NCBI GenBank assembly: GCA_040954595.2 | Contig: CM082582.2 | Coordinates: 744,001 to 808,000 of the forward strand | Reading direction: 5' to 3' | DNA length: 64,000 bases | Origin: Balanoglossus misakiensis | Lineage: Eukaryota; Animalia; Hemichordata | Part shown: positions 7,501 through 34,398 of the stretch, piece by piece | Layout of the letters: each line of letters opens with the position of its first letter | Position numbering within the stretch: position 1 is the stretch's first letter | Translations under genes and position numbers: made by a program | The notes under the pieces: model-generated | Databases searched by the model: none | The model's input: only the letters and a program-made list of their open reading frames with translations | Told to the model about the DNA's origin: nothing

Positions 7501-9734
7501 GAAGCCCCGGCACTCTAGAGCAGAAACAGGCGTACATTGACCACGTTGATCAAGTAAGATTTCCTACGGCGTGACTCGGCTGGTGCACCGGCTCTATATG
7601 ACACAGACTGGCGTAAGTTATCAACGGTGATTACGTCGGATTTCCTACGGCCTGGTGTAGCTGAAGCCCCGGCCCTTTAGAGCGGAAACACGCGTACATT
7701 GACCACGATAATCAAGTCAGATCTCCTACGGCCTGGCTCGACTAAAACCCCGGCACACCATGACAGACACTAGCGTTCGTTAGCAACGGTGATCAAGTCT
7801 GATTTCCTTCGGCCTGGCTCTGCAAAAGACCCGACACATTAGTACAAAGACGTTGGCTAAGTCGGGCAAACCGAAGAGGGAAAGTCACAGCGGGTCAACA
7901 CTCGACATTTGTTCCGGTAGGACTACATTATTGGCTGTCAATTTATAGAGAAAGCCCGAATTTAACCAGGGCGTTTCAAACACCGACGTTAGTTGTGGGC
8001 ACGGCCTGCAGTACTGATGATGGGTAAGCTGACATCGGCGTACCGCATGTAATGTAGGGGGGGGGGGGACAGAACGGTTCAATACTACATTTATTAGATA
8101 TCAGCTACTTTAGGACAATCATCTAAAATCTAAATCATTTTTTCATATTTGGATATCTGATGATGTATGAAATTTCCATTATATGTAAAAATGGTGCTGA
8201 TTATAAAAAATGCACTCTGAATGAGCTGATTTAATACAAAATTGCGTTTTATTCGTTTTTGCACCAAAAAGGTCATTTTTAGGGAAAACATTCTTTATTC
8301 TTTAAATTCGGTGACCTGATCATATATAAACAATTGCTTGTATGTTAAAAGTTTTAATGACTTTTATAAGCAGTGACACTGGCGGCATTCAACGCGAAAA
8401 TAACAATTTTAGCCACAATTCGGTCAAAATGGTAAATTTTTGAAAATTACAAAAAATACCTGTTTTCTACATTTTCGGAAATCTGATGGAGTATAGAATG
8501 CTCTTCGTATGTATATATCGATACAAATTCCACAAAAGACCGTCTAATTTGGCTCACTGCAGACAAAATTGCGTTTTACCAAATTTTCCTTGAAAATGTC
8601 ATTTTTAGAAAAAAAAATAAAAAACCTTTGTTCTTCGAATTTAGTGCCTGATCATATATGACATGTTGATTGTATGTTAAAACTTTCGACCACTCCAAAA
8701 ATGCTGAGATATTGACGGAATTCAAGAAAAAATAGCCATTTTGGCCATATTTTGACAAAAATGGTAAATTTTTAAAAAATCATAAAAAATTAACTCTTTT
8801 CTTCATTTTCGGAAATATTATAGAGCATGAAGTGTCGTTCTCTTGTAAAAAGTGCTGCAAATTCCAGAAAAGGCGGTATAATTTGAATCACCCAAGACAA
8901 AATTACCATTTTCGACTTTTTTTCGAAATATTGTTTTTTTACAAAATAAATAAGAATAAATTCTTTTCTTAGTTCCAAACGGGTAGAGATACTTTCCACA
9001 CGGATTTCTAACATTGAATTCCCGTTCATCAACTCAGATTTCCTACAAGTCGGCTAAAACCCTGACACTCTAGAACAGAAACAGTTGCACACTGGTAACG
9101 TTGAACAAGTCGATTTTTCTACGGCCTGGCTCGGCTAAATCTCCGTCACAATATGACAGACACTAGCGTAGGTTAGCAACGGTGATCAAGTCAGATTTTC
9201 TACGGCATGGCTTGGATAAAGCCCCGGCACTCCAGAGCAGAAACACGCGTACAGAGACCACGTTGATCAAGTCTGATCTCCTACGGCTTGGTTCGACTAA
9301 AACCCCGGCACACTATGACAGACACTAGCGTTCGTTAGCAACGGTGATCAAGTCAGATTTTCTACGACATGGCTTGGCTAAAGCCCTGGCACTCTAGAGC
9401 AGAAACACGCGTACAGAGACCACGTTGATCTATTCACATTTCCTTCGGCCTGGCACGGCTGATGCCCCGGCACTATATATAGGACACAAACTGGCGTAAG
9501 TTAACAACGGTAATCACGTCGGGTTTCCTACGGCCTGGCTCAGCTGAAGCCCCGGCTCTCTAGAGCAGAAACAGGCGTACATTGACAACGTTGATCAAGT
9601 AAGATTTCCTACGGCGTGACTCGGCTGGTACACCGGCTCTATATGACACAGACTGGCGTAAGTTATCAACGGTGATTACGTCGGATTTCCTACGGCCTGG
9701 TTTAGCTGAAGCCCCGGCACTTTAGAGCGGAAAC

Positions 9735-10728
9735 ATGTAGAAAACAGGTATTTTTTGTATTTTTCAAAAATTTACCATTTTGACCGAATTGTGGCTAAAA
9801 TTGTTATTTTCGTGTTGAATGCCGCCAGTGTCACTGCTTTTAAAAGTCATAAAAACTTTTAACATACAAGCAATTGTTTATATATGATAAGGTCACCGTA
9901 TTAAAAAAATAAAGAATGTTTTGACTAAAAATGACCTTTTTGGTGCAAAAACGAATAAAACGCAATTTTGTATTAAATCAGCTCATTCAGAGTGCATTTT
10001 TTATAATCAGCACCATTTTTACATATAATGGAAATTTCATACATCATCAGATATCCAAATATGAAAAAATGATTTAGATTTTAGATGATTGTCCAAAAGT
10101 AGCTGATATCTAATAAATGTAGTATTGAACCGTTCTGTCCCCCCCCCCTACATTACATGCGGTACGCCGATGTCAGCTTACCCATCAGTACTGCAGGCCG
10201 TGCCCACAACTAACGTCGGTGTTTGAAACGCCCTGGTTAAATTCGGGCTTTCTCTATAAATTGACAGGCAATAATGTAGTCCTACCGGAACAAATGTCGA
10301 GTGTTGACCCGCTGTGACTTTCCCTCTTCGGTTTGCAAGACTTAGCCAACGTCTTTGTACTAGAGTGTCGGGTCTTTTGCAGAGCCAGGCCGAAGGAAAT
10401 CCGACTTGATCACCGTTGCTAACGAACGCTAGTGTCTGTCATGGTGTGCCGGGGTTTTAGTCGAGCCAGGCCGTAGGAGATCTGACTTGATCATCGTGGT
10501 CAATGTACGCGTGTTTCCGCTCTAAAGTGCCGGGGCTTCAGCTAAACCATGCCGTAGGAAATCCGACGTAATCACCGTTGATAACTTACGCCAGTCTGTG
10601 TCATATAGAGCCGGTGTACCAGCCGAGTCACGCCGTAGGAAATCTTACTTGATCAACGTGGTCAATGTACGCCTGTTTCTGCTCTAGAGAGCCGGGGCTT
10701 CAGCTGAGCCAGGCCGTAGGAAACCCGA
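9735..10728 (-). repeat. Inverted ~1-kb segment of the macrosatellite
   Basis: At 9735 the sequence switches to the reverse complement of the AT block (ATGTAGAAAACAGG...), then runs through the poly-C linker and reversed 81-bp units. It returns to forward orientation at ...GGAAACCCGA|TTTTTCTACGG with CGA microhomology. Confidence 0.95.
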
Positions 10729-12997
10729 TTTTTCTACGGCCTGGCTCGGCTAAATCTCGTCACAATATGACAGACACTAGCGTACGTTAGCAACGGTGAT
10801 CAAGTCAGATTTTCAACGGCATGGGTTGGATAAAGCCCCGGCACTCTAGAGCAGAAACACGCGTACAGAGACCACGTTGATCAAGTCTGATCTCCTACGG
10901 CTTGGCTCGACTAAAACCCCGGCACACTATGACAGACACTAGCGTTCGTTAGCAACGTTGATCAAGTCAGATTTCCTACGGCATGGCTTGGCTAAAGCCC
11001 TGGCACTCTAGAGCAGAAACACGCGTACAGAGACCACGTTGATCTACTCACATTTCCTTCGGCCTGGCACGGCTGATGCCCCGGCACTATATATAGGACA
11101 CAAACTGGCGTAAGTTAACAACGGTAATCACGTCGGGTTTCCTACGGCCTGGCTCAGCTGAAGCCCCGGCACTCTAGAGCAGAAACAGGCGTACATTGAC
11201 CACGTTGATCAAGTCAGATTTCCTACGGCGTGACTCGGCTGGTGCACCGGCTCTATATGACACAGACTGGCGTAAGTTATCAACGGTGATTACGTCGGAT
11301 TTCCTACGGCCTGGTTTAGCTGAAGCCCCGGCACTTTAGAGCGGAAACACGCGTACATTGACCACGATGATCAAGTCAGATCTCCTACGGCCTGGCTCGA
11401 CTAAAACCCAGGCACACCATGACAGACACTAGCGTTCGTTAGCAACGGTGATCAAGTCGGATTTCCTTCGGCCTGGCTCTGCAAAAGACCCGACACTCTA
11501 GTACAAAGACGTTGGCTAAGTTGGGCAAACCGAAGAGGGAAAGTCGCAGCGGGTCAACACTCGACATTTGTTCCGGTAGGACTGCATTATTGCCTGTCGA
11601 TTTATAGAGAGAGCCCGAATTTAACCAGGGCGTTTCAAACACCGACGTTTGTTGGGGGCACGGCCTACAGTACTGCCGGGTAAGCTGACATCGGCGTACC
11701 GCATATAATGTAAGGGGGGGGGGGACAGAACGGTTCAATACTACATTTATTAGATATCAGCTAATTTTGGACAATCATCTAAAATCTAAATCATTTTTTC
11801 ATATTTGGATATCTGATGATGTATGAAATTTCCATTATATGTAAAAATGGTGCTTATTATAAAACATGCACTCTGAATGAACTGATTTAATACAAGATTG
11901 CGTTTTATTCGTTTTTGCACCAAAAAGGTCATTTTTAGGCAAAACATTCTTTATATTTTTAATTCGGTGACCTGATCATATATAAACAATTGCTTGTGTG
12001 TTAAAAGTTTTTATGGCTTTTAAAAGCAGTGACACTGGCGGCATTCATCACGAAAATAACAATTTTAGCCACAATTTGGTCAAAATGGTAAATTTTTGAA
12101 AATTACAAAAAATACCTGTTTTCTACATTTTCGGAAATCTGATGGAGTATAGAATGCTCTTCGTATGTATATATCGATACAAATTCCACAAAAGACCGTC
12201 TAATTTGGCTCACTGCAGACAAAATTGCGTTTTACCAAATTTTTCTTGAAAATGTCATTTTTAGAAAAATAAAATAAAAAAACCTTCGTTCTTCGAATTT
12301 GGTGCCCTGATCATATATGACATGTTGATTGTATGTTAAAACTTTCGACCACTCCAAAAATGCAGAGATATTGACGGAATTCAAGAAAAAATAGCCATTT
12401 TGGCCATATTTTGACAAAATGGTACATTTTTAAAAAAATCATAAAAAATAAACTCTTTTCTTCATTTTCGGAAATATTATGGAGCATGAAGTGTCGTTCT
12501 CTTGTAAAAAGTGCTGCAAATTCCAGAAAATGTGGTATAATTTGAATCACCCAAGACAAAATTACCATTTTCGACTTGTTTTCGAAAAATTGTCTTTTTT
12601 AAAAAATAAATAAGAATAAATTCTTTTCTTAGTTTCAAACGGGTAGAGATACTTTCCACACGGGTTTTCTAACATTGAATTCCCGTTCATCAACTCAGAT
12701 TTCCTACAGCATAAGTCGGCTAAAACCCTGACACTCTAGAGCAGAAACAGTTGCACACTGATAACGTTGAACAAGTCGATTTTTCTACGGCCTGGCTCGG
12801 CTAAATCTCGTCACAATATGACAGACACTAGCGTACGTTAGCAACGGTGATCAAGTCAGATTTTCAACGGCATGGGTTGGATAAAGCCCCGGCACTCTAG
12901 AGCAGAAACACGCGTACAGAGACCACGTTGATCAAGTCTGATCTCCTACGGCTTGGCTCGACTAAAACCCCGGCACACTATGACAGACACTAGCGTT

Positions 12998-13184
12998 ATT
13001 ATTATTATTATTATTAAGAATTGTTTAAAATGCGCTACACATACGTCTCAGCGCATTGTGCACAGCTAAAACAGTAGATTAAAAAATACAAGGCTGGTAA
13101 AAATAGTTAAAAGGACACAATCGAACACGTTACACATAAAACCGAGTAAAAAGGTATGTTTTCAAATTACGCTTAAAAATATTG
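12998..13184 (-). mobile_element. 5'-truncated L2/CR1-clade LINE 3' end
   Basis: The minus strand reads FKRNLKTYLFTRFYV*, typical of an L2-type ORF2 C-terminus. It is followed by a 3'UTR with a TGCGCT...AGCGCA stem and an (AAT)n tail. There is a 6-bp TSD AGCGTT at 12992-12997 and 13185-13190. Confidence 0.88.
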
Positions 13185-16100
13185 AGCGTTCGTTAGCAAC
13201 GTTGATCAAGTCAGATTTCCTACGGCATGGCTTTGCTAAAGCCCTGACACTCTAGAGCAGAAACACGCGTACAGAGACCACGTTGATCGACTAACATTTC
13301 CTTCGGCCTGGCACGGCTGATGCCCCGGCACTATATATAGGACACAGACTGGCGTAAGTTAACAACGGTAATCACGTCGGGTTTCCTACGGCCTGGCTCA
13401 GCTGAAGCCCCGGCACTCTAGAGCAGAAACAGGCGTACATTGACCACGTTGATCAAGTCAGATTTCCTACGGCGTGACTCGGCTGGTGAACCGGCTCTAT
13501 ATGACACAGACTGGCGTAAGTTATCAACGGTGATTACGTCGGATTTCCTACGGCCTGGTTTAGCTGAAGCCCCGGCACTTTAGAGCGGAAACACGCGTAC
13601 ATTGACCACGATGATCAAGGCAGATCTCCTACGGCCTGGCTCGACTAAAACCCCGGCACACCATGACAGACACTAGCGTTCGTTAGCAACGGTGATCAAG
13701 TCGGATTTCCTTCGGCCTGGCTCTGCAAAAGACCCGACACTCTAGTACAAAGACGTTGGCTAAGTCGGGCAAACCGAAGAGGGAAAGTCACAGCGGGTCA
13801 ACACTCGACATTTGTTCGGGTAGGACTGCATTATTGCCTGTCAATTTATAGAGAAAGCCCGAATTTAACCAGGGCGTTACAAACACCGACGTTAGTTGGG
13901 GGCACGGCCTGCAGTACTGCCGGGTAAGCTGACATCGGCGTACCGCATATAATATAGGGGGGGGGGGGGAAACAGAACGGTTCAATACTACATTTATTAG
14001 ATATCAGCTAATTTTGGACAATCATCTAAAATCTAAATCATTTTTTCATATTTGGATATCTGATGATGTATGAAATTTCCATTATATGTAAAAATGGTGC
14101 TGATTATAAAAAATGCACTCTGAATGAACTGATTTAATACAAAATTACGTTTTATTCGTTTTTGCACCTAAAAGGTCATTTTTAGGCAAAACATTCTTTA
14201 TTTTTTTAATTCGGTGACCTGATCATATATAAAGAATGGCTTGTATGTTAAAAGTTTTTATGACTTTTAAAAGCAGTGACACTGGCGGCATTCAACACGA
14301 AAATAACAATTTTAGCCACAATTTGGTCAAAATGGAAAATTTTTCAAAATTACAAAAAATACCCTTTTCTACATTTTCGGAAATCTGATGGAGTATAGAA
14401 GGCTCTTCGTATGTATATATCGATACAAATTCCACAAAAAACCGTCTAATTTGGCTCACTGCAGACAAAATTGCGTTTTACCAAATTTTCCTTGAAAATG
14501 TCATTTTTAGAAAAAAAAATAAAAAAAACCTTTGTTCTTCGAATTTGGTGCCCCGATCATATATGACATGTTGATTGTATGTTAAAAGTTTCGACCACTC
14601 CAAAAATGCAGAGATATTGACGGAATTCAAGAAAAAATAGCCATTTTGGCCATATTTTGACAAAAATGGTAAAATTTTAAAAAATCATAAAAAATTAACT
14701 CTTTTCTTCATTTTCGGAAATATTATGGAGCATGAAGTGTCGTTCTCTTGTAAAAAGTGCTGCAAATTCCAGAAAAGGTGGTATAATTTGAATCACCCAA
14801 GACAAAATTACCATTTTCGCCTTTGTTTCGAAAAATTGTCTTTTTTACAAAATAAATAAGAATAAATTCTTTTCTTAGTTTCAAACGGGTAGAGATACTT
14901 CCTACACGGGTTTTCTAACATTGAATTCCCGTTCATCAACTCAGATTTCCTACAGCATAAGTCGGCTAAAACCCTGAGACTTTAGAGCAGAAACAGTTGC
15001 ACACTGGTAACGTTGAACAAGTCGATTTTTCTACGGCCTGGCTTGGCTAAATCTCCGTCACAATATGACAGACACTATCGTACGTTAGCAACGGTGATCA
15101 AGTCAGATTTTCTACGGCATGGCTTGGATAAAGCCCCGGCACTCTAGAGCAGAAACACGCGTACAGAGACCACGTTGATCTACTCACATTTCCTTCGGCC
15201 TGGCACGGCTGATGCCCCGGCACTATATATAGGACACAGACCGGCGTAAGTTAACAACGGTAATCACGTCGGGTTTCCTACGGCCTGGCTCAGATGAAGC
15301 CCCGGCACTCTAGAGCAGAAACAGGCGTACAGTGACCACGTTGATCAAGTCAGATTTCCTACGGCGTGACTCGGCTGGTGCACCGGCTCTATATGACACA
15401 GACTGGCGTAAGTTATCAACGGTGATTACGTCGGATTTCCTACGGCATGGTTTAGCTGAAGCCACGGCACTTCAGAGCGGAAACACGCGTACATTGACCA
15501 CGATGATCAAGTCAGATCTCCTACGGCCTGGCTCGACTAAAACCCCGGCACACCATGACAGACACTAGCGTTCGTTAGCAACGGTGATCAAGTCGGATTT
15601 CCTTCGGCCTGGCTCTGCAAAAGACCCGACACATTAGTACAGAGACGTTGGCTAAGTCGGGCAAACCGAAGAGGGAAAGTCACAGCGGGTCAACACTCGA
15701 CATTTGTTCGGGTAGGACTGCATTATTGCCTGTCAATTTATAGAGAAAACCCGAATTTAACCAGGGCGTTTCAAACACCGACGTTATTTGGGGGCACGGC
15801 CTGCAGTACTGCCGGGTAAGCTGACATCGGCGTACCGCATATAATGTAGGGGGGGGGACAGAACGGTTCAATACTACATTTATTAGATATCAGCTAATTT
15901 TGGACAATCATCTAAAATCTAAATCATTTTTTCATAGTTGGATATCTGATGATGTATGAAATTTCCAATATATGTAAAAATGGTGCTGATTATAAAAAAT
16001 GCACTCTGAATGAGCTGATTTAATACAAAATTGCGTTTTATTCGTTTTTGCACCAAAAAGGTCATTTTTAGGCAAAACATTCTTTATTTTTTTAATTCGG

Positions 16101-21400: not shown

Positions 21401-21563
21401 TGATCATATATGACATGTTGATTGTATGTTAAAACTTTCGACCACTCCAAAAATGCAGCACTGCGGCCCAGAAGTGTGTTCATTTGTCCGCTATTCCGCG
21501 AAGCGGAAATATGTTAATTGAGGTCATATGCTGGGGTCACGTTCCTAGCATCGTATATACAAA

Positions 21564-22184
21564 ATGGCGGCGTCCATGATCGATGTTTCTAAAACAGTGA
21601 AACGTAAGCTGCGTGAGGCCAAATTTCAGTTATTGAGGACAAATATCGACCGTTCCATCAACCTACATGATTGTTTTGATGATCTCGATGCTGCTGTTGA
21701 TGTAACAGTTCGCAAACGTAGTGCAACGATGGTGGAGCTTGCGAAGATGCAGCAGATTCCGGTGTATCCTGTATTCGAACGGGAGATGTGTCACTGGCGC
21801 TCAACAATTATGCAGAGAATGAAGCCATCACCCTCAGTGCGCAACCCATGGAAGTGCAGTTTTGGTAGGAATGTTCCTATGGAAGTTTTCGATGTATTTC
21901 GACAGTGCGCTACCCGTAATTCAATGGGAATTTATGATCGGGAAACTCCATGTATTGCTACCTTTCGATTTACCTGGATCAACAAAGTGAATTACGTGCT
22001 GGGTAGAGGTGTCAACTATGAAAACCAACAACTTCTGGTGAAGACAGTAAAGGGTAAGCGGGTGGAAGTTATCTGCACCGAAGATAAACCTATGATTGTC
22101 AGATACAGGAAATCAGCCGAGACAGTGACAATACATTTCCATTTTGGATGCTGGAACAAACATGGTGTTGCTCAGCATTTGTGA
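21564..22184 (+). CDS. Intact intronless 206-aa accessory protein of the transposon, unknown function
   Basis: Long ORF in AT-rich context with a strong start context (AAAATGGCGGCG), ~100 bp inside the left TIR. Composition is protein-like, with a helical-looking N-half and a beta-rich-looking C-half. An ATTAAA lies downstream at ~22291. Confidence 0.8.
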   Translation: MAASMIDVSKTVKRKLREAKFQLLRTNIDRSINLHDCFDDLDAAVDVTVRKRSATMVELAKMQQIPVYPVFEREMCHWRSTIMQRMKPSPSVRNPWKCSFGRNVPMEVFDVFRQCATRNSMGIYDRETPCIATFRFTWINKVNYVLGRGVNYENQQLLVKTVKGKRVEVICTEDKPMIVRYRKSAETVTIHFHFGCWNKHGVAQHL

Positions 22185-22604
22185 AATCATATTTAGACTG
22201 TTGTTGAAATTTTTTTTCATGTTCTTGGAACTGACTATATTACTTTTTGTCAGTCCATTTGAATTCATGCATCGTTGCATGTCCAAGCAAAATTAAAAAA
22301 GAAAAACATGTTTTATAGGAACTGAATAGCTGTGGGTGAATCATTTATCATTCAGTTTTTATTCACTTATTTTGAAACATGGTTATCTACAGAGCTGATA
22401 TAAGCAGCTAGTTTCAAAGGATGATTAAAAAGCTATATACATATTTTGAACAATACAATACAAGCAGCACAAAATCTGTGACATTCATAATGAAAGATTA
22501 TTTACAACAAACTCTCTTACAGTTATATACAAATCTAAAACTATCCGGTACATTTCATGTACAGTAATAATTGTTTTGAATCATGAAATTCAAACTTTCA
22601 CATT

Positions 22605-25600
22605 TTATTTCATTATTTTTTTTAGTTTTTTTGAGATCTTACCACTAATTGCAGACTGTTTTATTTCTGACATAAATTCACTGCTGCATATTTCACAGGA
22701 ATTTGACAACTCTTCCTTTACATTCCCACAATAACAGTATGATGGGTCATCAAAGCATTTGTCTGGGATGTACTTTATTACTTTGGAGGCATTTGACCTC
22801 CCATCCCCCCTGTAGTTATCTGAAGCGGGGTCTCGCATGCGTAACCAGTACAACAATACATACTCATGTCTGAAAATTAGTGGCCATCTATTTTGAGGGG
22901 TGGAATTATTGCTGTATTCCAGAAGGCGCTGATGTTTTGCCTCCCTGCCCTCCATTGTATTAAGCCCAAGCCCCATTTGGAACTGCTGGTGGATTTGAGA
23001 TGCATGACACGGAACAACATATCCTATATGCCAAATAGTATTGTTTACGGTCAGAAATAACGCATGCAAATTGAAGTACCATTTGCACTTCTGCCTTAGT
23101 ACTACAATATCTCTCTCATGTAGGGTAAACCTGGAACAGAGAGATGTTATATCTCTGAGTAGGACACCAATGTAACCATACAGGGACAATTTCGCTCTCA
23201 CCTGTGCACTGATACCGGGTTCCCTAAAACACTCTATCAGTGACATAAAAGACCATGCCAACTTCCTTGATTCTTCCCCTGTAAAGCGGTGAACTCTCAC
23301 TGATTGGGCATGGGTACTAACCTTATTCTCAGCAAAATATTTGACAATTTGATTGTATAGTTTCCCTGCTCTCACTGTATATTTTAGTGTATGCAGGAAT
23401 TTGTACAGGCATGAATTTGGTGGTAGCTTTTCTAATTTCACACCATGGTCAATGACTTTTTGGTCAGTCTTAGCCACAGCATCAGTAAGAAGCCTTTGAA
23501 AGAAATACTGCCAGGCATTGTTTTTTAGATGTAGGGGTTCTATCTTGGCACACTGTATATACTTACCCAGGGGTGGAATATATTCCTGTCGGGATTTTCT
23601 GGAGGCAATGAAACGTGTGACCTTAGAGCGATCTGTCGATGTTTCAGGCTTACCTGTTTTCTTTGTCAAATTTGCTTTGAATTTTGCCACTGCTTATAGC
23701 TCCACTCTGACCAAAATTTCCCTGGCCCTATATCTGCCCCTATTTCATCTATGCTACCTTTTGTTACATTAGCAAAGGAACTGAAATACTCAGCAGCATT
23801 AGATAACTCACCAGAAACTGAGGCTAATCCCTTTTGATCAAATGGCAGCAAAGATACATTAAACTTTACACTCAGGCCATGTAAAGTGTATTGTTTGGCC
23901 TCTATGATCTCAAACTCTTTGGCTAGGTTTTTAGCATAATCTATCAGGACTGGGTCATCTTCCTTCAGATTAGCCCCTAGCAACAAGAAATTATCATCAG
24001 GGCTTGCTAATATGTGGCCCACATTGATGAAACTGACAAGCCAGGAAGTTGCCTGACCATATTTTCCAAAAGGAGCCCCATCAGCACCAACAGCAAGTTG
24101 GAAAGTGCCCTTCGGTTTGCCAAACCAATTTAGGATGTTAGGGTGGTGCTCACTCAAGCAAAGATACATGTCAGCAACTTTAAAGAGCATCTGCTCTGTA
24201 TTTCGCTTCATACCCACTACTTTGTTTGCATCTGTTACAATTGGTTCAAGACTTCCTATATCTAAACCACGTGTATATTCAGTGACCTTGTTGTAGGAAA
24301 GTAACCTTGGTATGTTACACCTAAAGTGAAATTGCAACACTTTTCTAGGTTGTTTTAATTTAGACAGATTCAACTCACTATTACGTAAGGCATTGTATTT
24401 GCGTTTTGACAAAACCCCATTCTGATACAACACTTGCACACTCCTAGTCAAATTACCTTCACTTTTCTCAAATTCAGATATTGATTTCTTTATCAAAGTT
24501 GGTATGACCAATTCATTTATTTTCATTGATGATTGAAGGTACTTTTCCATTTGACGTGGAGTGGCACTGTTGATCAAAGTATACCATAGCCCATCAAGAG
24601 CTGATTTTGGTGGATTTGCACTGACATGTCTCCCTGCAGATATATCTGTTCCTGATGATGACTGGTGTATGACTGTAGCTGCATGAAGAGTCTGACTTCT
24701 GCGTTCATGTTGCTGACTTCTGGACAGTGTGAGGCATTCACTGTTATTAGCACAAACCTGGCTGCTTTTATGAACCCACTTCTGTTTCTTTGGGGATGTC
24801 AAATCTGCAATCTTTAATAAATGAATACAAAACAGATTTTCATTGTCATGCCAAGGTTAAACAGGTAGGCAATGTCACATGAGCAAGCAATACACATGAA
24901 TGGAAACCCCAGTGTCATGCCAAGGTCAAACATGGAGGCCATGTCACATGAGCAAGCAATACACATGAATGGAAACCCCAGTGTCATGCCAAGGTCAAAC
25001 AGAGAGAGAATATCACATGATCAAGCAATACACATGAATGGAAATCCCAGTGTCATGCCAAGGTCAAACATGGAGGCCATGTCACATGAGCAAGCAATAC
25101 ACATAAATGGAAACCCCAGTGTCATGCCAAGGTCAAACATGGAGGCCATGTCACATGAGCAAGCAATACACATAAATGGAAACCCACGTGTCATGCCAAG
25201 GTCAAACATGGAGGCCATGTCACATGAGCAAGCAATACACATGAATGGAAACCCCAGTGTCATGCCAAGGTCAAACAGAGAGAGAATATCACATGATCAA
25301 GCAATACACATGAATGGAAATCCCAGTGTCATGCCAAGGTCAAACAGAGAGGCAATGTCACATGAGCAAGCAATATGCATAAATGGAAACCCCAGTGTTA
25401 TGCCAAGGTCAAGCAGGGAGGTGTTTCAAAGCTGTAGTTCAGAATTTAGAAAACAAACACACATAAAATCATATCATATACATTAAAGCAAGGTCAAAAT
25501 GTTTTATGATTCACTTAGTTGTAATATAATTTAAAGTATACAAACTTTAATTTGGTGGATATTTTCCTATTCTGCTTGTAATCATAAATCTTGTGAAAAT

Positions 25601-25990
25601 CTGAAATGAAGCTAAATTCCTTCTATATAATTACCTTACCTCCTGATTAAGCTTAACCCTATTTCCAGCTAATCTCCTTTGCTTCTTTGCTAGCCTGTTT
25701 AGTTGCTTACTGGCCCTGTCGACTAGTCTCCTCTTTGCATCTAATTTCTGCATTTTCTCTCTGTACTGAGCTACCTCTTCCTCACGTCTACGCTTTCTCT
25801 CTCTTGCCCATGCCCCTAGCTTGTATCTATTCTCTGACTTGCTCTTAACCTTTTCTGGCAGTGTCTTTGCAGCTAACTCAGCATCTAACAGCTGTTGAAG
25901 TTGTATGTCTCTAGCTATTTCTCTGGCTTTTTTTTGTTGGACTGCATACTGCCCGATGTCAAAATGGTTTGTCCTTTTCCTGTTAGGCAT
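22605..25990 (-). pseudogene. DDE transposase (~850 aa reconstructed), frameshifted; coding exons 25990-25640 and 24811-22605
   Basis: Motifs VGADGAPFG (D at 24080-24082), PFDQKG (D at 23837-23839), EPLHLKNN and TMEGREAKHQ (E at 22941-22943) parallel RAG1 CDG / YDEK / DALH / EGNESGN. Donor GAG|GTAAGG at 25640 and acceptor AAG|ATT at 24811 join in phase 0. There is a single frame change near 23690 (WSYKQ to AVAKFK). Confidence 0.88.
24843..25412. repeat. 69-bp minisatellite (~8 copies) in the predicted transposase intron
   Basis: Unit GTCATGCCAAGGTCAAACATGGAGGCCATGTCACATGAGCAAGCAATACACATGAATGGAAACCCCAGT. It gives the 23-aa periodicity seen in ORF 24872-25486. Confidence 0.95.
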
Positions 25991-27025
25991 GATTTGAGTT
26001 ATATCCAGAGCACAGCTGGGATGGAGTTACACAATGGAGCATTTCCTAAATGTGAATAAATGTGAAAAGTTGTAGAAAACATAAAAGGTCATCTAGAAAG
26101 CTGTTTCAGTCAAACAGTTCCAAACAGACAGTATTTAATGACGCTACAGAAGACCTGATGATATAAAAGACTGTGTATTTTGCGAAGTACTGGCATACTG
26201 TTGCAAGTACCGGAACATTGATTGAGTATAATCAGCTGCAATCTACGTATATTGCGCGTGGACGCAGTTCCTTCTGTGTGCGTCTGCTTTGCCTAAACGC
26301 TGTACGCGCGCGGCGTTCAAAGCGCTGTCGCAAGAACTCTCTCGTTCAAAATATTTACTCTTACATTTTAGAACGAAAATGATATATCAACATGTTATAT
26401 AGATATCAAGGAACAATCTGCTCGTTTTGGTTTTTTAGGTTCACGCTTCAAACTCGAGAAATCTGCCGATATGTTTTGCCTGACGGTCGACATTTGCGTA
26501 GCTGTGCCATTGTAATCAATGGTAGAGCGACGCGCAGGCAGAACGCGCCAAACTCGATGAATTTCTGCTTGGATCAATTTCTACATATGACCTTTTTGGG
26601 GATAGAAAATCAAAACACTGAGTTACAAACGTCTTAGGAACACTCTCATGGTTTTGAAATTTTGAATAATGCATTAAGATTTGATTTTTTCGGCCGTTTT
26701 TCTGTCTTGGTTGTGGTTGCTATGTTCTTTGTTTACATAGTTACCAATGATAGCGATTTGAAACCAGGTCAGATTTTCAGTGAAATTAAATGAATAGAAA
26801 TCAGAGAATGATGACAATACTAGCTTAAGACCTTAATGAATATGATAACGTGATGTAAACATTTTAAATGCGTTTAATGTCTTGTAATACTTACCGGCAT
26901 TTTCATGTTGTTGTAACTGGCAAACGTTCCATTGCCGGTAACAAATCGCCTCATACATTATTCATGAGGCCATGAAAGTAGGGACGGAAATATCAGACAA
27001 AGATGGCGCACACTGGGCTGTAGTG

Positions 27026-30000
27026 CAGAGCTAGTGGTCAGTGTCGTGCCAATCAATTTTGAGTGTTTGGTGGGGTCAACATATGCGTCAACATTGATTA
27101 GTCAGGCCATGCAGAGCTAGTGGCCAGTGTCGTGCCCATCAATTTTGAGTGTTTGGTGGGGTCAACATTTGCGTCAACATTGATTAGCCAGGCCATGCAG
27201 AGCTAGTGGCCAGTGTCGTGCCCATCAATTTTGAGTGTTTGGTGGGGTCAACCTTTGCGTCAACCTTGATTAGCCAGGCCATGCAGAGCTAGTGGCCAGT
27301 GTCGTGCCCATCAATTTTGAGTGTTTGGTGGGGTCAACCTTTGCGTCAACATTGATTAGCCAGGCCAGGCAGAGCTAGTGGCCAGTGTCTTGCCCATTAA
27401 TTTTGAGTGTTTGGTGGGGTCAACCTTTGCGTCAACATTGATTAGCCAGCCCAGAGCTAGTGGCCAGTGTCGTGCCCATTAATTTTGAGTGTTTGGTGGG
27501 GTCAACCTTTGCGTCAACATTGATTAGCCAGCCCAGAGCTAGTGGCCAGTGTCGTGCCCATTAATTTTGAGTGTTTGGTGGGGTCAACCTTTGCGTCAAC
27601 ATTGATTAGCCAGCCCAGAGCTAGTGGCCAGTGTCGTGCCCATCAATTTTGAGTGTTTGGTGGGGTCAACCCTTGCGTCAACATTGATTAGCCAGGCCAG
27701 AGCTAGTGGCCAGTGTCGTGCCCATCAATTTTGAGTGTTTGGTGGGGTCAACCCTTGCGTCAACATTGATTAGCCAGGCCAGAGCTAGTGGCCAGTGTCG
27801 TGCCCATCAATTTTGAGTGTTTGGTGGGGTAAACCTTTGCGTCAACATTGATTAACCAGGCCATGCAGAGCTAGTGGCCAGTGTCGTGCCCATTAATTTT
27901 GAGTGTTTGGTGGGGTCAACCTTTGCGTCAACATTGATTAACCAGGCCATGCAGAGCTAGTGGCCTGTGTTGTGCCCAATAATTTTGAGTGTTTGGTGGG
28001 GTCAACCTTTGCGTCAACATTGATTAACCAGGCCATGCAGAGCTAGTGGCCAGTGTCGTGCCCATTAATTTTGAGTGTTTGGTGGCGTCGACCTTTGCGT
28101 CAACATTGATTAACCAGGCCATGCAGAGCTAGTGGCCAGTGTCGTGCCCATTAATTTTGAGTGTTTGGTGGCGTCAACCTCTGCGTCAACATTGATTAAC
28201 CAGGCCATGCAGAGCTAGTGGCCAGTGTCGTGCCCATCAATTTTGAGTGTTTGGTGGGGTCAACCTTTGCGTCAACATTGATTAACCAGGCCATGCAGAG
28301 CTAGTGGCCAGTATCGTGCCCATCAATTTTGAGTGTTTGGTGGGGTCAACCTTTGCGTCAACATTGATTAACCAGGCCATGCAGAGCTAGTGGCCAGTGT
28401 CGTGCCCATCAATTTTGAGTGTTTGGTGGGGTCAACATTTGCGTCAACATTGATTAGCCAGGCCATGCAGAGCTAGTGGCCAGTGTCGTGCCCATTAATT
28501 TTGAGTGTTTGGTGGGGTCAACCTTTGCGTCAACATTGATTAGCCAGCCCAGAGCTAGTGGCCAGTGTCGTGCCCATCAATTTTGAGTGTTTGGTGGGGT
28601 CAACCCTTGCGTCAACATTGATTAGCCAGGCCAGAGCTAGTGGCCAGTGTCGTGCCCATCAATTTTGAGTGTTTGGTGGGGTCAACCCTTGCGTCAACAT
28701 TGATTAGCCAGGCCAGAGCTAGTGGCCAGTGTCGTGCCCATCAATTTTGAGTGTTTGGTGGGGTCAACATTTGCGTCAACATTGATTAGCCAGGCCAGAG
28801 CTAGTGGCCAGTGTCGTGCCCATCAATTTTGACTGTTTGGTGGGGTCAACCCTTGCGTCAACATTGATTAGCCAGGCCAGAGCTAGTGGCCAGTGTCGTG
28901 CCCATCAATTTTGAGTGTTTGGTGGGGTCAACCTTTGCGTCAACATTGATTAGCCAGGCCAGAGGTTAGTGGCCAGTGTCGTTCCCATCAATTTTGAGTG
29001 TTTGGTGGGGTCAACCCTTGCGTCAACCTTGATTAGCCAGCCAGAGCTAGTGGCCAGTGTCGTGCCCATCAATTATGAGTGTTTGGTGGTGTCAACCCTT
29101 GCGTCAACATTGATTAGCCAGGCCAGAGCTTAGTGGCCAGTGTCGCGTGTATTAATTTTGAGTGTTTGGTGGGGTCAACCCTTGCGTCAACCTTGAGTAG
29201 CCAGGCCAGAGCTAGTGGCCAGTGTAGTGCCCATCAATTTTGAGTGTTTGGTGGGGTCAACCCTTGCGTCAACATTGATTAGCCAGGCCAGAGCTTAGTG
29301 GCCAGTGTCGCGCGTATTAATTTTGAGTGTTTGCTGGGGTCAACCCTTGCGTCAACATTGATTAGCCAGGCCAGAGCTAGTGGCCAGTGTCGTGCCCATC
29401 AATTTTGAGTGTTTGGTGGGGTCAACCCTTGCGTCAACATTGATTAGCCAGGCCATGCAGAGCTAGTGGCCAGTGTCGTGCCCATCAATTTTGAGTGTTT
29501 GGTGGGGTCAACCTTTGCGTCAACCTTGATTAGCCAGGCCAGAGCTAGTGGCCAGTGTCGTGCCCATCAATTTTGAGTGTTTGGTGGGGTCAACCTTTGC
29601 ATCAACCTTGATTAGCCAGGCCTTGATTAGCCAGGCCATGCAGAGCTAGTGGCCAGTGTCGTGCCCATCAATTTTGAGTGTTTGGTGGGGTCAACCTTTG
29701 CGTCAACCTTGATTAGCCAGGCCATGCAGAGCTAGTGGCCAGTGTCGTGCCCATCAATTTTGAGTGTTTTTGTGGGGTCAACCTTTGCGTCAACCTTGAT
29801 TAGCCAGGCCATGCAGAGCTAGTGGCCAGTGTCGTGCCCATCAATTTTGAGTGTTTGGTGGGGTCAACCTTTGCGTCAACCTTGATTAGCCAGGCCAGAG
29901 CTAGTGGCCAGTGTCGTGCCCATCAATTTTGAGTGTTTGGTGGGGTCAACCTTTGCGTCAACCTTGATTAGCCAGGCCTTGATTAGCCAGGCCATGCAGA

Positions 30001-33000
30001 GCTAGTGGCCAGTGTCGTGCCCATCAATTTTGAGTGTTTGGTGGAGTCAACCTTTGCGTCAACCTTGATTAGCCAGGCCATGCAGAGCTAGTGGCCAGTG
30101 TCGTGCCCATCAATTTTGAGTGTTTTTGTTGGGTCAACCTTTGCGTCAACCTTGATTAGCCAGGCCATGCAGAGCTAGTGGCCAGTGTCGTGCCCATCAA
30201 TTTTGAGTGTTTGGTGGGGTCAACCTTTGCGTCAACCTTGATTAGCCAGGCCATGCAGAGCTAGTGGCCAGTGTCGTGCCCATCAATTTTGAGTGTTTGG
30301 TGGGGTCAACCTTTGCGTCAACCTTGATTAGCCAGGCCATGCAGAGCTAGTGGCCAGTGTCGTGCCCATTAATTTTGAGTGTTTGGTGGGGTCAACCTTT
30401 GCATCAACATTGATTAGCCAGCCCAGAGCTAGTGGCCAGTGTCGTGCCCATTAATTTTGAGTGTTTGGTGGGGTCAACCTTTGCGTCAACATTGATTAGC
30501 CAGCCCAGAGCTAGTGGCCAGTGTCGTGCCCATTAATTTTGAGTGTTTGGTGGGGTCAACCTTTGCGTCAACATTGATTAGCCAGGCCAGGCAGAGCTAG
30601 TGGCCAGTGTCGTGCCCATTAATTTTGAGTGTTTGGTGGGGTCAACCTTTGCGTCAACATTGATTAGCCAGCCCAGAGCTAGTGGCCAGTGTCGTGCCCA
30701 TTAATTTTGAGTGTTTGGTGGGGTCAACCTTTGCGTCAACCTTGATTAGCCAGGCCAGAGCTAGTGGCCAGTGTCGTGCCCATCAATTTTGAGTGTTTGG
30801 TGGGGTCAACCTTTGCGTCAACCTTGATTAGCCAGGCCTTGATTAGCCAGGCCATGCAGAGCTAAAGGCCAGTGTCGTGCCCATCAATTTTGAGTGTTTG
30901 GTGGGGTCAATCTTTGCGTCAACCTTGATTAGCCAGGCCATGCAGAGCTAGTGGCCAGTGTCGTGCCCATCAATTTTGAGTGTTTGGTGGAGTCAACCTT
31001 TGCGTCAACCTTGATTAGCCAGGCCATGCAGAGCTAGTGGCCAGTGTCGTGCCCATCAATTTTGAGTGTTTGGTGGGGTCAACCTTTGCGTCAACCTTGA
31101 TTAGCCAGGCCATGCAGAGCTAGTGGCCAGTGTCGTGCCCATCAATTTTGAGTGTTTGGTGGGGTCAACCTTTGCGTCAACATTGATTAGCCAGGCCATG
31201 CAGAGCTAGTGGCCAGTGTCGTGCCCATCAATTTTGAGTGTTTGGTGGGGTCAACCTTTGCGTCAACATTGATTAGCCAGGCCATGCAGAGCTAGTGGCC
31301 AGTGTCGTGCCCATCAATTTTGAGTGTTTGGTGGGGTCAATCTTTGCGTCAACCTTGATTAGCCAGGCCATGCAGAGCTAGTGGCCAGTGTCGTGCCCAT
31401 CAATTTTGAGTGTTTGGTGGGGTCAACCTTTGCGTCAACCTTGATTAGCCTGGCCATGCAGAGCTAGTGGCCTGTGTCGTGCCCATCAATTTTGAGTGTT
31501 TTTGTGGGGTCAACCTTTGCGTCAACCTTGATTAGCCAGGCCATGCAGAGCTAGTGGCCAGTGTCATGCCCATCAATTTTGAGTGTTTGGTGGGGTCAAC
31601 CTTTGCGTCAACCTTGATAAGCCAGGCCATGCAGAGCTAGTGGCCAGTGTCGTGCCCATCAATTTTGAGTGTTTGGTGGGGTCAACCTTTGCGTCAACCT
31701 TGATTAACCAGGCCATGCAGAGCTAGTGGCCAGTGTCGTGCCCATCAATTTTGAGTGTTTGGTGGGGTCAACCTTTGCGTCAACATTGATTAAACAGGCC
31801 ATGCAGAGCTAGTGGCCAGTGTCGTGCCCATCAATTTTGAGTGTTTGGTGGGGTCAACCTTTGCGTCAACATTGATTAGCCAGGCCATGCAGAGCTAGTG
31901 GCCAGTGTCGTGCCCATCAATTTTGAGTGTTTGGTGGGGTCAACCTTTGCGTCAACATTGATTAGCCAGGCCATGCAGAGCTAGTGGCCAGTGTCGTGCC
32001 CATCAATTTTGAGTGTTTGGTGGGGTCAACCTTTGCGTCAACCTTGATTAGCCAGGCCATGCAGAGCTAGTGGCCAGTGTCGTGCCCATCAATTTTGAGT
32101 GTTTGGTGGGGTCAACCTTTGCGTCAACCCTGATTAACCAGGCCATGCAGAGCTAGTGGCCAGTGTCGTGCCCATCAATTTTGAGTGTTTGGTGAGGTCA
32201 ACCTTTGCGTCAACATTGATTAACCAGGCCATGCAGAGCTAGTGGCCAGTGTCGTGCCCATTAATTTTGAGTGTTTGGTGGGGTCAACCTTTGCGTCAAC
32301 ATTGATTAGCCAGGCCAGGCAGAGCTAGTGGCCAGTGTCGTGCCCATTAATTTTGAGTGTTTGGTGGGGTCAACCTTTGCGTCAACATTGATTAGCCAGC
32401 CCAGAGCTAGTGGCCAGTGTCGTGCCCATTAATTTTGAGTGTTTGGTGGGGTCAACCTTTGCGTCAACCTTGATTACCCAGGCCAGAGCTAGTGGCCAGT
32501 GTCGTGCCCATCAATTTTGAGTGTTTGGTGGGGTCAACCTTTGCGTCAACCTTGATTAGCCAGGCCTTGATTAGCCAGGCCATGCAGAGCTAGTGGCCAG
32601 TGTCGTGCCCATCAATTTTGAGTGTTTGGTGGGGTCAATCTTTGCGTCAACCTTGATTAGCGAGGCCATGCAGAGCTAGTGGCCAGTGTCGTGCCCATCA
32701 ATTTTGAGTGTTTGGTGGAGTCAACCTTTGCGTCGACCTTGATTAGCCAGGCCATGCAGAGCTAGTGGCCAGTGTCGTGCCCATCAATTTTGAGTGTTTG
32801 GTGGGGTCAACCTTTGCGTCAACCCTGATTAACCAGGCCATGCAGAGCTAGTGGCCAGTGTCGTGCCCATCAATTTTGAGTGTTTGGTGGGGTCAACCTT
32901 TGCGTCAACATTGATTAACCAGGCCATGCAGAGCTAGTGGCCAGTGTCGTGCCCATCAATTTTGAGTGTTTGGTGGGGTCAACCTTTGCGTCAACCTTGA

Positions 33001-34398
33001 TTAGCCAGGCCATGCAGAGCTAGTGGCCAGTGTCGTGCCCATCAATTTTGAGTGTTTGGTGGGGTCAACCTTTGCGTCAACCTTGATTAGCCAGGCCATG
33101 CAGAGCTAGTGGCCAGTGTCGTGCCCATCAATTTTGAGTGTTTGGTGGGGTCAACCTTTGCGTCAACCCTGATTAACCAGGCCATGCAGAGCTAGTGGCC
33201 AGTGTCGTGCCCATCAATTTTGAGTGTTTGGTGAGGTCAACCTTTGCGTCAACATTGATTAACCAGGCCATGCAGAGCTAGTGGCCAGTGTCGTGCCCAT
33301 CAATTTTGAGTGTTTGGTGGGGTCAACCTTTGCGTCAACATTGATTAACCAGGCCATGCAGAGCTAGTGGCCAGTGTCGTGCCCATCAATTTTGAGTGTT
33401 TGGTGGGGTCAACCTTTGCGTCAACATTGATTAACCAGGCCATGCAGAGGTAGTGGCCAGTGTCGTGCCCATCAATTTTGAGTGTTTGGTGGGGTCAACC
33501 TTTGCGTCAACATTGATTAACCAGGCCATGCAGAGCTAGTGGCCAGTGTCGTGCCCATCAATTTTGAGTGTTTGGTGGGGTCAACCTTTGCGTCAACATT
33601 GATTAACCAGGCCATGCAGAGCTAGTGGCCAGTGTCGTGCCCATCAATTTTGAGTGTTTGGTGGGGTCAACCTTTGCGTCAACATTGATTAACCAGGCCA
33701 TGCAGAGCTAGTGGCCAGTGTCGTGCCCATCAATTTTGAGTGTTTGGTGGGGTCAACCTTTGCGTCAACATTGATTAACCAGGCCATGCAGAGCTAGTGG
33801 CCAGTGTCGTGCCCATCAATTTTGAGTGTTTGGTGGGGTCAACCTTTGCGTCAACATTGATTAACCAGGCCATGCAGAGCTAGTGGCCAGTGTCGTGCCC
33901 ATCAATTTTGAGTGTTTGGTGGGGTCAACCTTTGCGTCAACATTGATTAACCAGGCCATGCAGAGCTAGTGGCCAGTGTCGTGCCCATCAATTTTGAGTG
34001 TTTGGTGGGGTCAACCTTTGCGTCAACATTGATTAACCAGGCCATGCAGAGCTAGCGGCCAGTGTCGTGCCCATCAATTTTGAGTGTTTGGTGGGGTCAA
34101 CCTTTGCGTCAACATTGATTAACCAGGCCATGCAGAGCTAGCGGCCAGTGTCGTGCCCATTAATTTTGAGTGTTTGGTGGGGTCAACCTTTGCGTCAACA
34201 TTGATTAACCAGGCCATGCAGAGCTAGTGGCCAGTGTCGTGCCCATTAATTTTGAGTGTTTGGTGGGGTCAACCTTTGCGTCAACATTGATTAACCAGGC
34301 CATGCAGAGCTAGCGGCCAGTGTCGTGCCCATCAATTTTGAGTGTTTGGTGGGGTCAACCTTTGCGTCAACATTGATTAACCAGGCCATGCAGAGCTA
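27026..34398. repeat. 86-bp tandem satellite (with ~82-bp variants), roughly 85-90 copies, 7.4 kb
   Basis: Unit CAGAGCTAGTGGCCAGTGTCGTGCCCATCAATTTTGAGTGTTTGGTGGGGTCAACCTTTGCGTCAACATTGATTAGCCAGGCCATG; the first two units start at 27026 and 27112. Confidence 0.99.

Follow-up and report, generated by a model that had tools for sequence, protein, structure and literature searches.

A two-gene transposon family in Balanoglossus misakiensis with a RAG1-type predicted transposase fold and a convergent partner gene unlike RAG2

RAG-like (RAGL) transposons carry convergent RAG1L and RAG2L genes between CAC ends and generate target-site duplications (TSDs) of 5 bp (PMC7204232; PMC9435367); this and the other descriptions of known systems given here follow the excerpts available of the cited papers. 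The related ProtoRAG element has a YY1-type motif near one end, in TR5 (PMC7481187), and RAGL transposases end in a C-terminal tail of the form CX2CX3GHX4C (10.1101/2023.08.20.553239). Transib encodes one protein (PMC4411706) and duplicates 5 bp of its target (PMC4411706; PMC7204232). Chapaev elements have CAC..GTG ends, 3-4-bp TSDs and the motifs C(2)C, LH and H(4)H, the duplication in Chapaev3 being TWA (PMC4079192), and Chapaev3 transposases have an N-terminal Chapa finger (10.64898/2026.01.24.700457). C(2)C and H(3-4)H are said to occur in every named CMCT lineage (PMC12730594). Here we describe a two-gene transposon from the hemichordate Balanoglossus misakiensis, found in a 64,000-nucleotide stretch of contig CM082582.2 (assembly GCA_040954595.2, forward-strand positions 744,001 to 808,000), which we call the window and number from its first letter. 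The transposon copy occupies 21459-27025 (5,567 bp) between CAC..GTG inverted ends of 13 bp. We read it, with a probability of roughly 0.6, as a copy, broken by a frameshift, of a two-gene cut-and-paste family whose convergent partner gene likely encodes an accessory protein for efficient transposition.

The family resembles RAGL and ProtoRAG elements, and the RAG1-RAG2 pair, in its predicted core fold, its D-D-E triad, its CAC termini and the tail-to-tail arrangement of its genes inside inverted repeats; as in ProtoRAG, a YY1-type motif lies close to one end. However, the partner is a 206-aa alpha/beta protein, whereas that of RAGL is RAG2L, with a Kelch propeller and a PHD domain, and the TSD is 3 bp rather than 5 bp. 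The family also differs from RAGL and RAG1 in having no CxxC zinc pair, in a tail of the form CxC..CxxC instead of CX2CX3GHX4C, and in a sequence identity to RAG1 of 8-13%. It shares with Transib (HzTransib) the core fold, the CAC ends and the lack of an N-terminal Chapa finger, but has two genes and a 3-bp TSD where Transib has one gene and 5 bp. Similarity to Chapaev and Chapaev3 extends to the CAC..GTG termini, a TSD within 3-4 bp and the LH motif. Unlike either of these, the family has no C(2)C after the second catalytic aspartate and no Chapa finger, keeps H(4)H only in part, and has a conserved second gene; unlike Chapaev3, it has a TSD that is not limited to TWA. With no CxxC zinc pair, no Chapa finger and no 5-bp duplications, the family is therefore not RAGL, Transib or Chapaev.

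Two convergent genes inside one element

A pattern search located the left, partner-side terminal inverted repeat (CACTGCGGCCCAG, 21459..21471, + strand) and the right, transposase-side repeat (CACTACAGCCCAG, 27013..27025, - strand), which match at 11 of 13 positions when the second is inverted; relatives begin CACGCYGGG. The pattern common to both ends occurs twice in the 64 kb, only at the element ends, where 0.12 occurrences are expected, although this comparison mainly shows that a third copy is absent, as the two ends themselves supplied the pattern. The partner gene (21564..22184, + strand) is an intact single exon that starts 105 bp inside the left end and encodes 206 aa with an isoelectric point (pI) of 9.7. 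The transposase gene lies on the - strand with its stop codon at 22605, leaving 420 bp between the two stops. An initial sequence-only reading of the window had described a CAC...GTG-bounded element with tail-to-tail genes at this spacing; its boundaries were recovered at 21459 and 27025, and the distance between stops was the same on re-measurement.

Evidence that the two genes travel together came from a metagenome scan with a transposase profile, which confirmed 232 stretches, the best 80 of which were analysed as loci. A profile search found the partner downstream on the opposite strand, and hence convergent, in 34 of the 80 loci. This fraction rises to 30/33 for loci with at least 1,500 bp of downstream DNA and to 14/15 for those with at least 3,000 bp, and when near-identical loci are merged, the partner is present in 14 of the 17 families with enough DNA. 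No partner match below E 1e-10 was found in any other position in these loci, and a reversed-sequence control gave a best E of 0.063. These counts establish the consistent convergent co-occurrence that the sequence-only reading had proposed to look for, and they contradict the outcome it had named as fatal to itself, namely that transposase homologs generally lack the partner. The histories of the two proteins were compared using 18 hand-picked loci of the 34, together with the window. Transposase and partner identities are correlated (Mantel rho 0.61, p 0.0001, 19 sequences), and five clades are identical in the two trees, while the deep placement of the window and of L070 differs. Partner dN/dS is 0.21-0.34 in four unsaturated pairs; synonymous sites are saturated in five more. 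Judged by these sequence comparisons, the partner and the transposase are shown to have been long co-inherited, with the partner under purifying selection.

Relatives also provide information on the ends and on target duplication. A CACG-type end is found upstream of the partner in 23/34 loci, 77-131 bp from the partner ATG where matched; flanks differ between copies within six families, and element lengths range from 4.2 to 8.5 kb. Twelve contigs include both ends and their flanks. A 3-bp duplication is present in five of them (GAT, TTA, AGC, TAG and ATT), with one 2-bp match and none of 4-8 bp (p ~3e-5 at a generous chance rate); L060, with a single flanking base, was excluded from this count. 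In one further locus, L081, a complete, intact-looking 8.5-kb element (6241-14782) lies inside a 294-bp satellite, with ATA doubled around the element and single in 20 empty units that have the matching continuation (30 anchor matches). Thus, six relatives have a 3-bp duplication, and in one of them, L081, it is proven by empty sites. L081 is the only match among prokaryote genomes, its contig being filed in a bacterial metagenome-assembled genome; because of the 294-bp satellite array and the intron-type layout, it is likely to be animal DNA in a bacterial bin, and not a bacterial ancestor. Only one of the seven duplications seen in the family (CAG in the window, GAT, TTA, AGC, TAG, ATT and ATA) fits TWA. 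At the level of sequence, 3-bp duplications without a fixed target are therefore shown for the family.

The transposase gene of the window copy, all on the - strand, was reconstructed from open reading frames and alignment with homologs. Exon 1 (25640..25990) has 117 codons, is basic, coiled-coil-like and cysteine-free, and aligns to homolog N-termini. It is followed by a predicted intron of 828 bp (24812..25639), which contains a 69-bp tandem repeat (24844-25421, 8.4 copies) and is predicted to be spliced as GT..AG, with sites at 25639 and 24812 that join exon 1 in phase 0. The middle frame (23669..24811) carries the catalytic D in GADG and the D in FDQK, and the C-terminal frame (22605..23693) carries EPLH, RFTG, the catalytic E in EGREAKH and the C-terminal CxC..CxxC, so that GADG, FDQK, EPLH and EGREAKH are all present in the order first noted. 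Near 23690 the frame changes, with about seven codons and one base missing relative to homologs. Since a contig from sequencing run X2 crosses this site without a gap, an assembly error is unlikely, and the window copy would therefore be mobile only with transposase supplied in trans. The spliced DDE transposase of the sequence-only reading holds for exon 1 and the in-phase GT..AG sites but not for the reading frame, which is broken.

A few smaller observations concern the same region. A strong GTAAGT donor at 26895 on the - strand suggests a further non-coding 5' transposase exon near the right end. Runs X1 and X2, which come from one sample that may be the source of the window DNA, contain a second, diverged variant of 25425-26774, in the 5' region of the transposase gene; it differs by several indels and has a loose end at 26774. 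Short pieces 80-90% identical to the element near 22845-22976 and 24039-24130 also occur in this sample, and their sequence suggests further decayed relatives.

The YY1-type motif of the window copy (GCCATCTTT, 26999..27007, - strand) lies 18 bp inside the right end and is identical to the ProtoRAG TR5 element at 8 of 9 positions. Such motifs occur no more than 200 bp from at least one end in all eight elements checked and are sparse in the interior. At the partner end the motif overlaps the start-codon context (AAAATGGCG), where it may be only a Kozak-type signal.

The transposase and its relation to named groups

A search with the C-terminal frame of the transposase returned 32 longer relatives, the best of which, from Ptychodera flava, is 60% identical; named relatives come from Nematostella, Actinostola, Exaiptasia and Lineus, and the family as a whole is widespread among marine invertebrates. 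A profile search extended the family to 328 proteins. No precomputed Pfam domain was present among the 120 of these 328 matches listed, in which the named proteins are "uncharacterized" or "hypothetical", and none of 31 transposases scored above Pfam's curated cut-offs. Sequence searches of the PDB with the transposase and the partner, as single sequences or profiles, gave nothing significant, and no relatives of either protein were found in viral contigs.

Evidence for the fold of the transposase came from a predicted model of the P. flava protein (P0001, pLDDT 87.9), which serves as the reference for residue numbers and in which about the first 100 residues are absent. The model matches RAG1 (5zdz_C; Z 22.7, root-mean-square deviation (rmsd) 4.1 over 468 residues), BbRAG1L (6b40; Z 19.9) and HzTransib (6pqx; Z 19.8, rmsd 4.2 over 425 residues), and more weakly the P element (Z 12.3) and Hermes (Z 6.2) transposases, with sequence identities of 8-13% across the structural matches. 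Foldseek gives E 2.4e-12 against RAG1. In the ESM Atlas, structural similarity to RAG1 (TM 0.63), EnSpm Transposase_21 (0.62) and Plavaka (0.59) is about equal, while the feature neighbours are RAG1_RNase_H and RAG1 clusters at 0.95 and one fungal cluster at 0.97. The transposase is accordingly modelled with the RAG1/Transib catalytic fold. The comparison with RAG1 and HzTransib that the sequence-only reading had recommended thus favours the fold it expected, with EnSpm and Plavaka models about as near.

Conservation among 135 homologs is consistent with a D-D-E enzyme. D181 and D262 are present in all 135 and E566 in 134, the triad being assigned from motif order and conservation rather than from residue-level superposition. 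No cysteine pair is conserved between D262 and E566 in these homologs; a single C518 occurs in 91/135. The C-terminal cysteines C637, C639, C650 and C653 (CxC..CxxC) are conserved. H370 of the LH motif is found in 134/135 and H545 in 133/135, whereas H540 is found in 70/135 and is Y in the window copy. No conserved N-terminal Cys/His set was seen in exon 1 or in the aligned homolog N-termini. By motif resemblance, the first R of RFTG may correspond to RAG1 R848, an equivalence that we do not claim.

Outside the RAG and Chapaev groups, the closest parallels are with CMCT and EnSpm elements, which the family resembles in having CA..TG ends, a TSD within 2-5 bp and a DDE core, and in the similarity of its predicted model to those of Transposase_21 and Plavaka. 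In contrast to EnSpm and Plavaka, it has no Transposase_21 match (31 members, E 0.1) and no Plavaka Pfam match. In contrast to CMCT and EnSpm elements, its two genes are separate and convergent, and the partner belongs to no known family. C(2)C is absent and H(4)H is half degenerate, but in other respects the family behaves as a CMCT element. A two-protein make-up is familiar from EnSpm, which has TnpA and TnpD, and accessory genes are common among CMCT elements. Taken together, the family is apparently an undescribed two-gene RAG1-fold lineage related to the CMCT group. A literature search, which covered neither Repbase and Dfam nor subscription journals, found no description of a two-gene family of this kind, and the excerpts available of RAGL and CMCT work, including 10.64898/2026.08.26.747230 and 10.1101/2021.09.26.461848, do not describe it.

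An alternative that would be compatible with the proposed transposition mechanism, and that we consider rather unlikely, is that the family has already been curated in Repbase or Dfam, for example as EnSpm, Chapaev, Lanisha or an unclassified 3-bp-TSD group from Nematostella or corals. Four near-identical 797-aa copies lie on four large contigs of Nematostella vectensis, a genome used in Repbase work according to the excerpt available (PMC4411706), and the existence of intact copies there makes prior curation plausible. Parts of another study indicate that fungal families with CAC..GTG ends and a 3-bp TSD are filed as EnSpm, and that Lanisha is described only in Repbase Reports (PMC12730594). 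However, the absence of any Pfam assignment among the 31 transposases, the uninformative names of the homologs and the lack of a description in the literature searched argue against prior curation, as does the absence of the C(2)C said to be common to all named CMCT lineages in the excerpt available (PMC12730594).

The partner protein and its possible role

The partner is predicted with high confidence scores (pLDDT 94) to form an N-terminal helical hairpin followed by an alpha/beta domain, with no beta-propeller. Its conserved motifs are RR, PW and a C-terminal (Y/F)GxWNxxGxPQH, and the family is basic, with a pI above 9 in 36 of 49 full-length members. A word-seeded search gave no match, whereas a full HMMER search gave 115 clusters at E ≤0.001, mostly of 200-240 aa and including some spurious repeats (P0054, P0103 and P0140); 62 of the 115 were aligned with the query. 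Pfam assigned no family to these 63 members and found no Kelch or PHD match in them, in agreement with the absence of both noted from the sequence. Foldseek returned no PDB match for the partner at E 0.001, one fold search gave a single viral model (E 3.4e-4, TM only 0.22), and the ESM Atlas gave no usable match. The best VIA match (Z 7.6) is confined to the generic N-terminal hairpin, with the alpha/beta domain barely probed alone. The predicted fold is without a known match, although empty fold searches are no proof that it is new.

Four loci (L066 1054-1263, L067 3222-3323, L068 690-899 and L060 282-473) contain weak, stop-bearing fragments resembling the partner, inside the element, on the transposase strand and upstream of that gene; they are perhaps the remains of a decayed second partner copy.

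Across the family, elements have CAC..GTG ends, a D-D-E triad and genes that both start near the ends and point inward, and they occupy many insertion sites. From the predicted fold and the familiar chemistry of RAG and Transib, a transposase dimer would bind both ends, cutting would leave hairpins on the flanking donor DNA, and the ends would be joined to the target with a 3-bp stagger. The basic partner would act with the transposase, either at the ends of the element or on the target, much as TnpA serves En/Spm and RAG2 serves RAG1. We somewhat favour an accessory factor working at one of these two sites. Because it shares no fold with RAG2, the partner would have been recruited independently.

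Several considerations weigh against this interpretation. The accessory role is proposed from sequence and a predicted fold, and co-inheritance follows from physical linkage and says nothing of protein contact. Three loci (L012, L020 and L047) have no partner despite at least 1,500 bp of downstream DNA; in L081, a 74%-identical relative of L012, the partner is 4 kb away, past the point at which the L012 contig ends. Seven of the 12 two-ended contigs have no 3-bp TSD. Three of these have one end in common with a TSD-bearing contig, suggesting collapsed assemblies, while the other four are unproven in this respect. The PDB ranking favours RAG1 because no EnSpm or Chapaev transposase is among the PDB matches, and with predicted models about equally similar, a closer relationship of the transposase to RAG1 than to EnSpm or Plavaka is not shown. 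The sequence-only reading, which had proposed a distinct lineage with a non-RAG2 partner, is supported, with the partner as a putative cofactor.

The main alternative, which we consider rather unlikely, is that the transposon is the same but the partner is a regulator and no part of the transposition machinery: it would counter silencing, or activate or repress transcription at the element's own ends. VANC-like and TnpA-like regulatory roles provide models for such a function. A regulatory role would fit a small, basic protein that diverges faster than the transposase (median identity 21% vs 39%), as well as the start of both genes near ends where YY1-type motifs are enriched. Against it, though not decisively, the conserved positions of the partner concentrate in the C-terminal aromatic motif, its length and position are kept, and no chromatin-reader or known DNA-binding fold is recognised in it.

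A passenger host gene as the partner, or a chance neighbourhood in the window, is highly improbable and largely refuted by the partner's convergent position in 14/17 families, its fixed distance from the end, the tree congruence and the purifying selection, although a partner-like stretch does occur in a nemertean gene model with tau-type repeats. This model (P0126, 613 aa, Tubulanus polymorphus) combines tau/MAP tubulin-binding repeats with partner-like residues 466-608 (E 1.4e-4) and may be a fusion or a gene-model artefact. The related idea of a host gene captured once, also raised in the sequence-only reading, fails for a recent passenger, given a position ~80-130 bp inside the end, congruent trees and a dN/dS of 0.21-0.34. 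A single ancient capture, in the ancestor of the family, is instead the expected origin of the partner.

A standing question on how V(D)J recombination arose is by what route a one-gene transposase like that of Transib became dependent on RAG2. A bolder form of the accessory model, possible but doubtful, is that the family is an undescribed superfamily-level RAG1-fold lineage of cnidarians, nemerteans and hemichordates, with the partner as an obligate transpososome subunit of new fold that may compensate for the loss of the zinc site. If so, the RAG1-RAG2 arrangement would have been invented a second time, independently, and intact copies would be open to experiment. The family offers a natural comparison for RAG with regard to what a partner adds and why the layout is convergent, and it has a RAG1-fold transposase that apparently works with the CxxC half of the zinc site missing and a stagger of 3 bp. 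In addition, several hundred "uncharacterized" marine-invertebrate proteins gain a family identity, and the partner family, a confidently predicted fold without a match, is placed in a transposon context.

Repeats around the window copy

The window copy is flanked by CAG on both sides (21456..21458 and 27026..27028, + strand), an apparent 3-bp duplication whose two copies lie in different repeats. The left CAG is inside a unit of a ~2-kb repeat, which is matched at six further places in the window. Past the insertion point, five of these six extend onward, four of them as CAG-AGATATTGACGG, as expected of empty copies; the continuation after CAG in other copies of the repeat reads CAG-AGATATTG. 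The right CAG is in the first part of an array (27024-34398) of an 86-bp satellite with units of the form ATGCAG-AGCTAGTGG. Both repeats contain ATGCAGAG. Given two different flanking repeats, the CAG duplication did not arise by one simple insertion; the flanks could reflect recombination of two copies in similar targets, or aberrant transposition. Contigs from runs X1 and X2 support the junctions between the element and its flanks. The 3-bp TSD of the sequence-only reading is consistent with CAG on both sides and with the 3 bp seen in relatives, but the CAG of the window is no clean insertion scar. A 5-bp TSD (TGCAG) was considered for this copy and rejected, as it would need an end that breaks the CAC..GTG symmetry.

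One X2 contig lacks the element and joins 21456 to 27282, running from the left flank into the right satellite; three additional letters in it form a short palindrome of the right-flank CAG. Such a joint could be a footprint of excision to which palindromic letters were added. The contig has a shorter side of 27 bases, was matched at relaxed identity among repeats and is not among the X1 matches, and it is not counted as evidence.

The ~2-kb repeat is a composite with 81/162-bp subrepeats, amplified in tandem and partly inverted within 1-21458, with copies ~95% identical. Its matches start at 643, 7952, 11612, 13855, 15747 and 20701, with one inverted at 10250-9732, and it is very deep in runs X1 and X2. 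The 86-bp satellite spans 7.4 kb with ~86 copies, including 82-bp variants. It begins exactly at the right element end, and the array has the same phase at its start and its end (CAGAGCTA).

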